Positions 55,254-63,654 of a stretch of 64,000 nucleotides of DNA are shown in pieces; the first letter of the stretch is position 1, and the number at the start of each line of letters is the position of its first letter. Below the pieces are notes generated by a model, which worked only from the letters and a program-made list of their open reading frames with translations, was not told where the DNA came from and searched no databases. The position numbers and the translations under genes were made by a program. Location of the stretch: contig CAVXIV010000014.1 in assembly GCA_963761805.1 (NCBI GenBank), positions 33,217 through 97,216 on the forward strand, written 5' to 3'. The DNA comes from an uncultured Acidobacteriota bacterium (lineage in GTDB: Bacteria > Acidobacteriota > Thermoanaerobaculia > Multivoradales > UBA5704).

Positions 55254-55370
55254 GAGCGGTTCATGATACCCGGCGGCAAGGCCCATCCACTTGTCTCAGC
55301 CTGCCCCGGGTGAGGCACACTGAAGAGAGAGGCGGGAATGTTCCCCCTCCAGCTCATCAAGGAGAACCCA

Positions 55371-55562
55371 ATGAAGAAGGCCTTTCTGCTCTGCTTCTCT
55401 CTGCTGCTTCTCGGCTTCGCCACCGCGATCCCCACGACCGCCGCGAGCTGTTGCAAGAACCAGTGCTCCACCAACAGCGGCTGCGACCGGGTCTGCGGCG
55501 CCGGGCTCGGCCAGTGCGTGCAGATCAACTCCTGCTGCCGGGCGTGCGCCTGCGCGGCCTGA
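55371..55562 (+). CDS. secreted conotoxin-like cysteine-rich peptide, family copy 1 (63 aa)
   Basis: RBS AAGGAGA. MKKAFLLCFSLLLLGFATAIPTTAA (signal), then SCCKNQCSTNSGCDRVCGAGLGQCVQINSCCRACACAA (10 Cys). Paralogs at 62943 and 63167. Confidence 0.65.
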   Translation: MKKAFLLCFSLLLLGFATAIPTTAASCCKNQCSTNSGCDRVCGAGLGQCVQINSCCRACACAA

Positions 55563-55599
55563 CGCGGAAAACCCGCCTCTGTTCCCAGTGCGGCTGAGC

Positions 55600-55623
55600 G
55601 GCGCTTGCCCCCGCGCAAGCGCC
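55600..55623 (+). terminator. conserved GC-rich 3' hairpin (GGCGCTTGCC-CCCG-CGCAAGCGCC), possibly a terminator or stability element; no T-tract
   Basis: Perfect 10-bp stem. An equivalent hairpin in the same 50-bp conserved 3' context follows paralog 3 at 63395-63420. Confidence 0.45.
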
Positions 55624-55654
55624 GCCGTCGGCGTCCGGGTCTCCTATCCTTGCA

Positions 55655-55966
55655 TCACTTCGCCGGCGCGGTGGCGGCGCCGATCTTGACCTTGACCGCT
55701 TTCTTGTCGTCCTCCGTCAGGTCGACGGACACGCGGACGCCCGGCGCGAGGGCCGAGCGCGTGGCAGCCTTTTTATCCTTCTCATATTGGGTGGCCGCGG
55801 TGAGCTCCACCATCTTTTCCTTGCCGTCCGGAGTGGTCACGACCAGGTGGTTCTCGTGCAGCATCTTGACGGTGCCGAGCAGCTTGTGGCTCTTGCCGCC
55901 GTGAGCGAAAGCCGCGCCGGTTGTCAACGCTACAGCTAGTAGGAAAATCATGATCTTGTTGCGCAT
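55655..55966 (-). CDS. small periplasmic protein, possibly CusF-like metal-binding
   Basis: Start MRNKIMIFLLAVALTTGAAFA with RBS AAGGAGA. The mature part HGGKSHKLLGTVKMLHENHLVVTTPDGKEKMVELTAATQY has an OB-fold-like beta pattern. Last gene of the copper cluster. Confidence 0.5.
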   Translation of the reverse strand: MRNKIMIFLLAVALTTGAAFAHGGKSHKLLGTVKMLHENHLVVTTPDGKEKMVELTAATQYEKDKKAATRSALAPGVRVSVDLTEDDKKAVKVKIGAATAPAK

Positions 55967-55976
55967 CGGTGTCTCC

Positions 55977-56582
55977 TTAATGTTCATGCGAGGCGTCAGA
56001 GGTGGCCTCTCCAGAGAGAAAGGCTTCCTCGGCCTGGATCTGTTCCCATTCTTCGGGCGTCTTCGGGTTGAGCGCCTCCATCCCGGCGATCTCCTCCGGT
56101 GTGATCTTCGGGAGGCGCCGGACGAGGTGCACCAGCCCCCAGGAGCCGTAGGCGGACTCGGCCGTGCCGTCGCCCCAGCCGGGCATGGCGGTGAGGCGGA
56201 TGCCGTTCTCGATGATCGCGAACAGCTCGCCGTCGGAGAGCGACTGCGTGGCCGCGAGCGTCATGTCGGGCGCGCGCGGATAGAAACGTTTTCCCAACTC
56301 CGTCCGCCCCTTGCCGTCGTTGCCGTGGCAGGAGGCGCAGTGGTCGGCCCAGTGCGCCCGCGCCTGCGCGAGCACCTCGGGCGTGAGCGGCAGCGGGTTG
56401 CGCTCGTTCCGCAGGTCGGCCGGCGTGGCCCAGCTCCGCATCGTGCGCGCGGCCCAGGCCTCCATCCGCGAAGGCTCCTCGTGGGTGCTGAAGCCGCGGC
56501 GCACCAGGCTCCAGAGCAGCAGCCCGCCCAGCAGGGCCAGGACAGCCACGGCGAGCAGCGCGAGCTTGAGCGGCCGGCGCAC
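55977..56582 (-). CDS. c-type cytochrome (class I, single heme)
   Basis: CASCHG heme-binding motif after an N-terminal TM anchor. A downstream Met (TAMPGWG) could be the sixth ligand. Confidence 0.8.
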   Translation of the reverse strand: MRRPLKLALLAVAVLALLGGLLLWSLVRRGFSTHEEPSRMEAWAARTMRSWATPADLRNERNPLPLTPEVLAQARAHWADHCASCHGNDGKGRTELGKRFYPRAPDMTLAATQSLSDGELFAIIENGIRLTAMPGWGDGTAESAYGSWGLVHLVRRLPKITPEEIAGMEALNPKTPEEWEQIQAEEAFLSGEATSDASHEH

Positions 56583-56585
56583 GGC

Positions 56586-61523: not shown

Positions 61524-61701
61524 CTTTTGATCTTACCTCCGCCGAAGCCGCTGCAAACGATTCATTCATTGGTGGGGGAGCGGCTCGCTTTTAGCGTGGT
61601 CGGGCACTTATCCCTAATGTAGGCCAACCGTATCTTGTCTCTGCAACGTGCTGCTCGTGGCGCGGCAAGTCGCTCGCCGCAATCTTCAAGGAGGATCCTC
61701 G

Positions 61702-62235
61702 ATGAGCCCTCTCAGACAGATCGCCATCTGGGTCGCGATCCTGACCCTCACGGCCGGGGTGGGGAGCGTCTCAGCGACCAACCAGAATGGTTGCTTCAAA
61801 TTCGCGGACGCCGTGATCCGTTGGTACAACGGCGGGACCGGCGACTACTTCGCCATCTACAACGAAGAGGCGAAGACCGACTACAACGCGTGGGATCCTT
61901 ATACGGACGTCTCCCTCGCGGCCGTGGGCGCGGCCGGCACCACCGACCACATCAACGCCTACAACGGTTTTTACGGTTCGACCGGCTGGCTCTCGCTCAC
62001 ACAGATCACCAGCTACAGCGGCTGCACCGTCAAGAGCGGTCGCATCCAGATGAATCAGACCTATCTCGACAACGGCAGCTATACGCGCCTGCAGAAAAAG
62101 GCCGTAGCCTGCAACCTGATCGGCAAGATCCTGGGCCTCACCAACCAGTCGTGGAACGCCGGCTGCATGGACGGCACCCTCAATAACCCGTTCCCGAGCG
62201 CGCACGATCGGGACACGATCAACGCGATCTACTAG
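61702..62235 (+). CDS. hypothetical secreted protein
   Basis: Start MSPLRQIAIWVAILTLTAGVGSVSA with RBS AAGGAGG. 4 Cys. No recognisable catalytic motif. Confidence 0.55.
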   Translation: MSPLRQIAIWVAILTLTAGVGSVSATNQNGCFKFADAVIRWYNGGTGDYFAIYNEEAKTDYNAWDPYTDVSLAAVGAAGTTDHINAYNGFYGSTGWLSLTQITSYSGCTVKSGRIQMNQTYLDNGSYTRLQKKAVACNLIGKILGLTNQSWNAGCMDGTLNNPFPSAHDRDTINAIY

Positions 62236-62245
62236 GAGGCGTGCC

Positions 62246-62848
62246 ATGCGCTCCAACAAGATTTTCTGGGCAATGTCGCTCGTTCTCGCGGTCGCCGGCT
62301 TCACCGGCGGCTCGTTGATCAGCCATGAGACCTCCACCATGGAGGGGAAGGCCGTCTGGAAAGAGGTCTACGGATCGCCCGCCGAGATGGCCGCCCGGGT
62401 GGACGCCGTCGTGCTCGCCCGGGTGGCCGGCACCCAGCCGGGCCGGGTCGTCTGGTCCGAGGGCGGAGAGGACGCCCTCCCCTTCCAGCTCGTGGAGCTC
62501 GACGTGCTCCAGGGGATCAAGGGAGCGGCGAAGGCGGAGCGGATCCTCCTCGAGCGGGTCGGCGGCACGGCTCCGGACGGCCGCGCTGTCGATCTCTCCT
62601 ACGACGGCGGAGCGTTCGAGTATGGAGCCACGTACCTGCTCTTCCTCAAGAAGCAGGAGGACGGCCCGTACTTCTACCAGGTGAACCATCAGGGCCGCTA
62701 CCTGGTGGCCGGAGACCGGCTGTGGGCCGCCGATCCCGAGGACTCCGTGGCCAAGGCGTTCGAAGGCGCGCCGGTCTCCCGGGTGGTCGGCGAGCTCCGT
62801 TCTACTCGCGGGGTGACAGCCGGGCGGGCAGGTGCGGCGGCACTCTGA
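62246..62848 (+). CDS. hypothetical secreted protein
   Basis: RBS TAGGAGG. Signal-like MRSNKIFWAMSLVLAVAGFTGG. Confidence 0.55.
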   Translation: MRSNKIFWAMSLVLAVAGFTGGSLISHETSTMEGKAVWKEVYGSPAEMAARVDAVVLARVAGTQPGRVVWSEGGEDALPFQLVELDVLQGIKGAAKAERILLERVGGTAPDGRAVDLSYDGGAFEYGATYLLFLKKQEDGPYFYQVNHQGRYLVAGDRLWAADPEDSVAKAFEGAPVSRVVGELRSTRGVTAGRAGAAAL

Positions 62849-62942
62849 GGGCAGTCCCATTGTTGCCTCAGCCTGCCCGGGTGAGGCACACTGAACATCA
62901 GGGGCGGGAATGGTTCCCCTCCAGCTCATCAAGGAGAACCGA

Positions 62943-63137
62943 ATGAAGAAGGCCTTTCTGCTCTGCTTCTCTCTATTGCTCCTCGGCTTCGCCACCACCG
63001 TCCCCACGACCGCCGCGAGCTGTTGCCGCCCCGAGTGCTCGGTCAACAGCGACTGCAACAGGAAGTGCGGCGCGGGCCTGGGCACGTGCGTACAGGCCAA
63101 CTCCTGCTGCAAAGTGTGTATCTGCTCGGCGACCTAG
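62943..63137 (+). CDS. secreted conotoxin-like cysteine-rich peptide, family copy 2
   Basis: MKKAFLLCFSLLLLGFATTVPTTAA, then SCCRPECSVNSDCNRKCGAGLGTCVQANSCCKVCICSAT. It has the same 85-bp upstream sequence as copy 1. Confidence 0.65.
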   Translation: MKKAFLLCFSLLLLGFATTVPTTAASCCRPECSVNSDCNRKCGAGLGTCVQANSCCKVCICSAT

Positions 63138-63166
63138 CGCCTTCCCCACTCAAGGAGAATCACCTC

Positions 63167-63358
63167 ATGAAGAAGGCTTTTCTGCTCTGCTTCTCTCTCT
63201 TGCTCCTCGGCTTCGCCACTACCGTCCCCACGACCGCCGCGAGTTGCTGCAAGAACCAATGCTCCAACGACAGCGGCTGCGACCGGGTCTGCGGCGCCGG
63301 TCTCGGCCGGTGCGTGCAGATCAACTCCTGCTGCCGGGCGTGCGCCTGCGTGGCCTGA
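63167..63358 (+). CDS. secreted conotoxin-like cysteine-rich peptide, family copy 3
   Basis: RBS AAGGAGA. MKKAFLLCFSLLLLGFATTVPTTAA, then SCCKNQCSNDSGCDRVCGAGLGRCVQINSCCRACACVA. It is followed by the conserved 3' hairpin at 63395-63420. Confidence 0.65.
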   Translation: MKKAFLLCFSLLLLGFATTVPTTAASCCKNQCSNDSGCDRVCGAGLGRCVQINSCCRACACVA

Positions 63359-63654
63359 TGTAGAAGGCCTACCTCCGTTCCCAGTGTGGCTGAGTGGCGC
63401 TTGCCTGCACGCAAGCGCCACTGCCCGGACAACCGCCCCAAGCCGGCGAGCCCGCCCGCCTTCCCCGGCACGGCGCCGGCCCCCGCGAGCCCCGCGCCGG
63501 CCTACCCGGCGCCGCCCAGAAGCTCACCCTGAAGAAACAGAGAGAGGAGGCGCGGGAGAAGGTCCGTGCGCTCGGAGGGACGAGGGCGTGAGTCCCCGCC
63601 CGGGCATCAATGCCATCCTCTTGTACACATCTCGGCTGAGCTTCGAATAGCCTC

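Follow-up and report, generated by a model that had tools for sequence, protein, structure and literature searches.

Three genes for secreted ten-cysteine peptides

The 64,000-nucleotide (nt) stretch analyzed here, hereafter the window, belongs to contig CAVXIV010000014.1 of an uncultured member of the Acidobacteriota (Thermoanaerobaculia) and contains three paralogous genes, all on the forward strand, for small cysteine-rich peptides that are probably bacterial cis-defensins. Copy 1 (55371-55562) encodes a precursor of 63 amino acids (aa), with a putative 26-aa signal and a core of 37-38 aa. Copy 2 (62943-63137, 64 aa) and copy 3 (63167-63358, 63 aa) form a tandem pair in this order, separated by a 29-nt intergenic spacer on the same strand (63138-63166) that contains a ribosome-binding site (RBS); the same short spacer is found in L002 and L016 (L-numbers, L001-L026, denote loci or contigs from related genomes and metagenomes used in our comparisons). 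The three precursors begin with MKKAFLLCFSLLLLGFAT..PTTAAS, followed by a core of ≈38 aa (37-39 aa) with the common framework SCC-x3-C-x5-C-x3-C-x6-C-x5-CC-x2-C-x-C, in which the ten cysteines are invariant. These open reading frames (ORFs), with their coordinates, strand, and framework, are as described in an earlier sequence-only reading of this DNA. Copies 1 and 3 are of the 'KNQC' type and copy 2 is of the 'RPEC...SAT' type, and pairwise amino-acid identity ranges from 76 to 90%. A repeat search of the window recovers the genes as a direct-repeat family of three copies (271 nt), spaced 7572 and 224 nt apart, copy 3 being 86% and copy 2 68% identical to copy 1. The repeats across the larger spacing lie on both sides of a copper cluster, as had been stated. 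A regular-expression scan of all six frames of the window finds no fourth member.

The substitution pattern supports the view that these are real coding genes with fast-evolving loops. Across 17 distinct genes (dS ≈0.42), dN/dS rises from 0.16 for the signal to 0.58 for the core and 0.98 for the non-Cys core sites, values that pool non-independent pairs and paralogues, and the Cys codons are invariant throughout. The low signal dN/dS at substantial dS, together with the unchanging Cys codons, requires translation in this frame. Each copy also has an AAGGAG motif 6-8 nt 5′ of its ATG, and orthologues of copy 2 in L002, L010, and L011 are 87-92% identical to it. The doubt that the ORFs might lack an RBS or coding support in homologous genomes is thereby overturned. 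Copy 2 equals database entry P0007 (75 aa) except for the start call; the in-frame upstream ATG of P0007 has no RBS and, as read from the sequences, is out of frame in L015, so the MKK start is the real start.

Judged by eye, all members have a secretion signal composed of MKK, a 14-residue hydrophobic stretch, and TAA/S, the slash marking the predicted cut. This points to a Sec-type signal cleaved by signal peptidase I, in keeping with the earlier description of secreted, disulfide-rich peptides with a Sec-type signal and a ten-Cys core. Scans of the three peptides against Pfam and NCBIfam give no family match (none in Pfam at E ≤ 10), only sub-threshold lipoprotein signal-peptide models, which a lipobox test (L-[AS]-[GA]-C) rules out: the residue at -1 is S, R, or G, and A stands at -3. 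The lipoprotein reading is further rejected on L009, which has an 8-residue insert ahead of the CC, and on relatives with long pro-regions.

A predicted cis-defensin fold of the xanthusin lineage

To place the peptides, we built a core profile (A4) from 41 cores. Against the whole PDB (177,635 sequences), its best match is xanthusin-1 (7UNX, E = 2.2e-6), followed by scorpion alpha-toxins (Hj1a, E = 1.8e-3). In hhalign, the profile matches an alignment of bacterial defensins of classes II/III (published sequences, PMC11561630) with 96.4% probability and E = 1.3e-9. The AlphaFold (AF2) model of the mature core has a mean predicted local distance difference test score of 91.4, with a helix at residues 10-17 that carries C13xxxC17 and strands at residues 22-26 (C24) and 32-36 (C34xC36); the full-length model has the same helix and strands. 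Foldseek ranks xanthusin-1 first, with a template modeling score of 0.67-0.70, and its other matches are mostly scorpion toxins and a plant defensin. The cis-defensin framework C...CxxxC...C...CxC, with a Gly after the helix, is present in full: C7, C13xxxC17-G18, C24, and C34xC36 are invariant in the 41 cores, one alpha-helix is predicted to lie on an antiparallel beta-sheet, and the similarity to a solved member is significant. Sequence profiles and structure prediction thus agree on a cis-defensin with the alpha-beta fold stabilized by cysteines (CS-alpha-beta). Taken as a whole, with the biogenesis, expression, and function proposed below, the identification of the peptides as bacterial cis-defensins of the xanthusin lineage, in a five-disulfide variant, is in our judgment probable.

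Xanthusin-1, a class II peptide of Myxococcus xanthus, resembles the window peptides in having a Sec signal and a small CS-alpha-beta core, and both contain the motif C-x-x-[ND]-S-x-C-D-x-x-C-G-x-G-x-G-x-C ... C-x-C. Whereas xanthusin-1 has six Cys, three disulfides, and an unstructured N-terminal tail of 9-10 residues, the window peptides have ten Cys, no tail, and a longer loop before the last strand, and they come from another phylum. The class II definition (three disulfides and an N-terminal tail of 9-13 residues) therefore does not describe these ten-Cys peptides, whose first Cys lies one residue past the predicted cleavage site. The class III peptides of the Polyangiaceae (cellulosin-1, apiculatusin-1, and crocatusin-1) share the C-x5-CD-x2-C-x6-7-C core and have a fourth disulfide between an N-terminal Cys and one that immediately precedes the last strand, but they are myxobacterial, with eight Cys rather than ten and an acidic tail of ≈15 residues. 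Class III calls for exactly one extra disulfide, between the first and sixth Cys, whereas the window peptides have two extra Cys pairs; some 8-Cys relatives in the family ('CSPPPQC...NSCY' and 'CRMRPQC' types) fit this class better and are nearer to it than the window copies.

Outside bacteria, the scorpion long-chain alpha-toxins and other CS-alpha-beta peptides have the same fold, and the motif C-x3-C-[FS]-RDS-x-C-[ND]-x2-C is common to Hj1a and the core profile. The scorpion toxins differ in being eukaryotic peptides of 60-70 aa with four disulfides, another outer arrangement, and a known ion-channel pharmacology.

The description of the peptides as conotoxin-like survives as an analogy only, given that profiles and predicted fold place them in the cis-defensin superfamily beside xanthusin-1 and classes II/III. 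Conotoxins do show the same evolutionary pattern of conserved signal, invariant Cys framework, and hypervariable loops, but there is no relationship in sequence or fold, and the CC-C-C-C-C-CC-C-C framework is unmatched to conotoxin families here; the peptides have no Pfam match at E ≤ 10, and conotoxins do not occur among the fold or sequence matches. Other candidates were rejected as well. Knottins (inhibitor cystine knots) are absent from the matches, and the model has an 8-residue helix that carries the CxxxC, whereas the knotted three-disulfide beta fold of knottins has no helix. A thionin, suggested by the SCC start, is unsupported in the profile and fold searches. The N-terminus is a Sec-type signal and not a leader with a maturase, as would be expected of the precursor of a ribosomally synthesized and post-translationally modified peptide (RiPP), and no radical-SAM, lanthipeptide, or cyclase gene lies beside any family member in the neighborhoods examined.

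Additional cysteine pairs

Relative to xanthusin-1, the four additional Cys are a CC at the N-terminus and a CC before the last strand. Their numbers covary: 31 of 41 cores have two at each site, ten have one at each, and in none of the 41 are the numbers unequal. This pairwise covariation suggests one or two additional disulfides between the N-terminal segment and the inter-strand loop, for which C2-C30 and C3-C31 are the candidate bonds. The canonical bonds, which follow the cis-defensin connectivity C1-C4, C2-C5, and C3-C6, would be C7-C24, C13-C34, and C17-C36, by homology with xanthusin-1. The mature peptides are ≈3.8-4.0 kDa with a net charge of +2, and they contain no aromatic residue and no His. 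At 26% Cys and without F, W, Y, or H, the core is metallothionein-like in composition; against this resemblance stand the confident ordered model and the pairwise gain and loss of Cys, and none of the three peptides matches a metallothionein family in Pfam.

We propose that the precursor is exported via Sec by means of its MKK-hydrophobic-TAA/S signal and then cleaved by signal peptidase I. The 38-aa core would consist of one helix (CxxxC) packed on a two-stranded sheet (CxC), an arrangement predicted with high confidence, and its N-terminal CC would, from the covariation, be bonded to the CC between the strands (C2 to C30 and C3 to C31).

A small family in the Thermoanaerobaculia and other Acidobacteriota

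The family is small and, where sources are named, limited to Thermoanaerobaculia and other Acidobacteriota. A word-indexed protein search finds only 11 close protein clusters in 5.8 billion sequences, and the named sources are all metagenome-assembled genomes (MAGs) of Thermoanaerobaculia. Among 185,579 species, each represented by one genome, six loci are found, again all in Thermoanaerobaculia, and metagenomes of the Joint Genome Institute contribute five more. The distant relatives are seen only in an exhaustive hidden Markov model (HMM) search of 1.84 billion representatives, which gives 41 proteins at E ≤ 1e-3; those few with a named source belong to Thermoanaerobaculia or Acidobacteriota. 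Most of the 41 are longer than the window peptides (95-150 aa); in these, a long Ala/Pro-rich pro-region separates the signal from the C-terminal core, which is the same as in the window peptides. One match of this search, P0018 (585 aa, repetitive), was discarded as spurious.

Bacterial cis-defensins were classified in 2024 into five classes from 74 peptides, almost all of Myxococcota and Proteobacteria, with a single peptide from Acidobacteria that is of a different class (PMC11561630). Our literature search found no paper describing the present branch. Because similar peptides are known in Gram-negative soil bacteria, the window peptides are less unusual than the sequence-only reading supposed. 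What is known is the kind, bacterial cis-defensins; what is new is the ten-Cys framework, the phylum, the organization in pairs, and the private 5′ element. These data add a coherent Acidobacteriota/Thermoanaerobaculia branch, with ≈40 representative clusters by exhaustive search, in which short (signal-core) and long (signal-propeptide-core) precursors occur and divergent paralogues recur as tandem pairs. The reach of the core profile to scorpion sodium-channel toxins bears on the bacterial roots of the eukaryotic CS-alpha-beta defensins and toxins.

Another peptide in the window may also belong to this superfamily. The gene at 41790-42002 (forward strand) encodes a secreted peptide of 70 aa with the pattern C-x5-C-x3-CG...CC-x-C, and an AtDEF-like match in Pfam that lies below the cutoff (E = 3.7e-4), and hhalign relates it to the defensin profile with a probability of 55%. 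This peptide is probably a further cis-defensin of the same genome, distant from the others.

A private 5′ element and a proposed transcription unit

Copy 1 and the tandem pair are preceded by homologous elements at 55291-55370 and 62863-62942, respectively, both on the forward strand. The element of copy 1 contains the blocks TGTCTC, GCCTG..TGAGGCAC, and GGCGGGAATGTTCCCC and the RBS AAGGAG (55359-55364). The two elements are ≈89% identical over ≈80 nt, with two 1-nt indels, which bears out the upstream similarity of copies 1 and 2 noted earlier; the near-palindrome reported within it is imperfect, with 6-7 of 8-9 positions paired. There are two copies of the element in the 64 kb, both upstream of defensin genes, and elsewhere in the window a 26-nt probe taken from it finds no match (0.00 expected by chance).

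Across loci, the conserved blocks are TGTCyC, GCCTs...GAGGCAC, GGGCGGGRATGGTCCCC, and CTCATCAAGGAGAACC, then the ATG, and in 11 other loci they precede the defensin gene that comes first or stands alone. Every locus with upstream sequence and without an insertion sequence (IS) there has the ≈80-nt sequence before its first or only gene. The element is also found upstream of L018, a more distant member from Thermoanaerobaculia, and is absent upstream of L019, an Acidobacteriota relative from another lineage. Second genes of pairs have a spacer of 29-33 nt with an RBS only and no 5′ element. Copy 3 is such a gene, without an element of its own and 29 nt behind copy 2, and this short spacer with its RBS suggests that the pair is bicistronic. 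In 236 kb of sequence (the window plus the loci), good matches to the element occur only upstream of defensin genes and in one orientation. From this restriction in position and orientation, we conclude that the element is a gene-specific control region; the doubt that the flanks might be a miniature inverted-repeat transposable element (MITE) is settled accordingly, as they are not.

The element has no match in Rfam. RNAalifold retains only a 4-bp hairpin, two candidate stems have 2-3 compensatory pairs, not clearly above shuffled controls, and folding z-scores range from -0.9 to -2.3. No sigma-70 promoter consensus is present in the element, and a sigma-54 promoter was ruled out by spacing on inspection. 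A -35-like TTGTCT and a -10-like CACACT are separated by 19 nt with a dyad between them, a layout in which one might, speculatively, see a MerR-like promoter. A loose regular expression for the dyad is too unspecific to define a regulon.

At the other end, copies 1 and 3 have the core-coding part and ≈63 nt of 3′ flank in common (≈78% identity overall, rising to ≈85% in the final 48 nt). At the end of the flank is a hairpin, at 55598-55625 for copy 1 and in homologous form at 63394-63421 for the pair, both on the forward strand, in agreement with the earlier report of a shared flank and hairpin. The stem is 11-12 bp, and its pairing is kept between the two through one compensatory change, from C-G to T-A. 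The copy 1 hairpin, which is GC-rich with an 11-bp stem and a 6-nt loop, is terminator-like without a U tract and sits between copy 1 and a convergent DUF5666-like gene. A strong, GC-rich hairpin of locus-specific sequence, again without a U tract, follows the last gene in every locus. We therefore envisage a transcription unit that would run from the ≈80-nt 5′ region through one gene or a bicistronic pair of divergent paralogues to the GC-rich hairpin.

Origin of copy 1

The earlier claim that whole expression cassettes were duplicated is correct in that the flanks were duplicated with the ORFs, but the unit consists of a 5′ element, one or two genes, and a hairpin, and copy 1 is chimeric. 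The tandem pair, a 'RPEC...SAT' gene followed by a 'KNQC' gene, is conserved across L002-L004 and L016. In copy 1, the 5′ element is that of the first gene, whereas core and 3′ flank are those of the second, and the change from one to the other falls at the signal/core boundary: its signal-coding part agrees with copy 2 at four informative sites and at no such site with copy 3, and from the first core codons onward it tracks copy 3. Between tandem paralogues, the synonymous difference (pS) is 0.15 in the signal and 0.56 in the core, whereas orthologues are equal in both parts. The simplest reading is that copy 1 is a recombinant or gene-conversion product of a duplicated pair, collapsed within the near-identical signal-coding segments.

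In MAG SMAG_U1959, an IS element with the terminal repeat TGTAGTGGGTC and a transposase fragment lies between two defensin genes, and both contigs of this genome break at the IS element (L010 8260-8396 and L005 1-169).

The copper cluster between the copies

The cluster bracketed by the copies (55655-61061) is encoded on the reverse strand. It comprises genes for a DUF5666-like protein (55655-55987), a cytochrome c (55977-56582), a multicopper oxidase (56586-57970), an outer-membrane efflux protein (57963-59391), a His-rich HMBD protein (59388-60311), a 117-aa Cys/His protein (60394-60747), and a Cys-rich 63-aa peptide (60870-61061). Between the cluster and the pair lie a PepSY protein gene on the reverse strand (61227-61523) and two forward-strand genes without a family match (61648-62235 and 62246-62848), and upstream of copy 1 are a cation diffusion facilitator (CDF) transporter gene and a resistance-nodulation-division (RND) efflux operon (48520-54147).

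Defensin genes adjoin this cluster (cytochrome c, multicopper oxidase, efflux protein, HMBD protein, and 117-aa protein) at both ends in the window, and they also do so in L007 and in L005/L012 taken with L010; in L002-L004 they occupy the opposite side. Their position relative to the cluster varies between genomes. Five contexts have defensin loci without copper genes: L001/L008 and L009/L014 (a purA-ccsA-hemA locus), L011, L018, and L019. The copper-cluster proteins of the four linked genomes are 48-94% identical. As these genomes are close relatives, the linkage is explained economically by synteny inherited within a metal-resistance island, and the position beside the copper cluster probably reflects such synteny and not functional coupling.

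Compared with the intact L005 orthologues, the multicopper oxidase of the window reads in three frames and the efflux protein in two. These three frameshifts in 2.8 kb represent either gene decay or indel errors of the assembly; the defensin ORFs are intact. Within the HMBD gene, 15-nt tandem repeats at 59784-59843 encode (M)DHDE/DHGE units. The 63-aa peptide of the cluster represents a second secreted Cys-rich family (eight Cys, MKKIWKLL...CVYP) that is found at 60870-61061 (reverse strand), at L002 3872-4063 and L005 634-834, and in L021-L026. It was considered as a defensin relative and rejected, being unrelated to the defensin profile. Several contigs have the series of 63-aa Cys-rich peptide, 117-aa protein, and HMBD protein, with the peptide first, and this family shows a tighter linkage to copper genes than the defensins do.

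Possible functions

By analogy with defense and venom peptides, the function that we favor is that of an exported effector against other organisms, antimicrobial or toxin-like, although we would place this proposal slightly below an even chance. It is suggested by a constant scaffold, by loops that evolve at a nearly neutral rate, and by the retention of divergent tandem paralogues. Actifensins, which are other bacterial defensins, are antibacterial (PMC11561630).

Several points weigh against our interpretation. The Foldseek E-values are all ≈1, as expected for a 38-residue domain, and we infer the disulfide connectivity as a whole from sequence comparison. A net charge of +2 is low for a membrane-active peptide. 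Xanthusin-1 was expressed in every condition examined and had no antibacterial effect on three test strains (PMC11561630), and no activity is known for the present branch. Because the pooled dN/dS values include non-independent pairs and paralogues, a ratio near 1 cannot separate relaxed from diversifying selection. Finally, the copper cluster adjoining the defensin genes is the same in four genomes, and it includes a member of a second Cys-rich peptide family.

This last point leads to a possible role in copper handling, in which peptides of the defensin fold would chelate Cu(I) or buffer it, either in the periplasm or extracellularly, or would serve as sacrificial thiol/disulfide substrates, co-selected and perhaps co-regulated with the cluster. 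Besides the recurrent linkage, at varying positions, in four genomes, such a role can draw on the Cys content of the core (26%) in the absence of aromatic residues and His, and on a Cys/His-rich 147-aa protein encoded upstream of the pair in SMAG_U1959. The dyad and 19-nt spacing between TTGTCT and CACACT in the 5′ element are reminiscent of MerR-type promoters. "Metal chelating" is among the listed activities of cis-defensins (PMC11561630), and the cis-defensin-like CAL1 protein of rice handles cadmium (PMC5811569). CAL1 thus combines such a scaffold with heavy-metal handling, but it is eukaryotic, its metal is cadmium, and its function was shown genetically, whereas the case here consists of gene neighborhood only. 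Set against these points are the five independent contexts without copper genes and the close relationship of the four linked genomes, whose shared ancestry can explain the linkage. The strict Cys covariation and the confident ordered model argue for disulfides and not free thiolates, there is no metallothionein family match, and no MerR-family gene is present among the window ORFs scanned. We consider a copper role unlikely, and the suggestion in the sequence-only reading that the peptides might be metal chelators loses ground to the disulfide-pairing evidence and the inconsistent copper linkage. A more specific form, in which a defensin-fold lineage was recruited to copper defense for Cu(I) capture or redox buffering under a MerR-like long-spacer promoter in the 5′ element, seems quite unlikely; if true, it would give the plant defensin-like metal-tolerance proteins their first counterpart in prokaryotes.

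Equally improbable, in our view, is a role directed at the producer itself, as a signal, a developmental or biofilm cue, or an inhibitor of an enzyme or channel, that is neither antimicrobial nor metal-related. The low charge of +2 would suit it, as would a singleton copy in a conserved housekeeping locus of two genomes and the behavior of xanthusin-1, which is constitutive, is not induced by co-culture, and showed no antibacterial activity in tests (PMC11561630). No receptor or regulator gene is consistently adjacent in the neighborhoods examined, which counts against such a role. Signals dedicated to a receptor are usually under purifying selection at their contact residues, whereas the non-Cys core of this family has a dN/dS of ≈1 and divergent tandem paralogues have been kept.

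The last alternative, that the flanks are a MITE or a structured RNA gene and the ORFs fortuitous, could appeal to the duplication of non-coding flanks with the ORFs, to two short palindromes in the 5′ element, and to an IS element and conjugation-type genes near some members, but its likelihood is negligible in view of the signal dN/dS of 0.16 at dS 0.42 with invariant Cys codons, the RBS at a fixed distance, homologues with entirely different flanks and long pro-regions, the restriction of the element to one orientation upstream of these genes in 236 kb, and the lack of an Rfam match or of covariation better than in controls.

As compact, hyperstable scaffolds, the peptides could be screened for antimicrobial or metal-binding activity, and their recurrent position at the copper cluster offers a cheap, testable hypothesis on a non-immune role of the fold.

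Other features of the window and of related loci

Between the RND operon and the CDF gene, a reverse-strand ORF (54283-54582) encodes a small exported protein rich in CC and CxxC motifs (DSCVDC...CCPPSCCPCC) that has no Pfam match. An imperfect palindrome of AAGGAC-like repeats lies at 54181-54272, and its only database matches are spurious, sub-threshold microRNA models. Just 3′ of the defensin pair, an imperfect inverted repeat (63661-63901) has 60-nt arms, 83% complementary and 89 nt apart; it is single copy in the window and belongs to no Rfam family.

In L006, just upstream of the defensin pair, two small genes (1259-1444 and 1776-1979) have a GG-type leader (…LDSKELGGVVGA…) and Cys-rich cores and look like RiPP precursors. 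Near the start of the window, a reverse-strand gene (1314-1694) without a family match encodes a secreted protein of 126 aa that is rich in Cys and in Thr/Ser. Close to it, at 2532-2978, where a crude gene call places no gene, lies an array of 21 tandem 21-bp units (90% matching), every one of which contains the palindrome GCTTC-N6-GAAGC.

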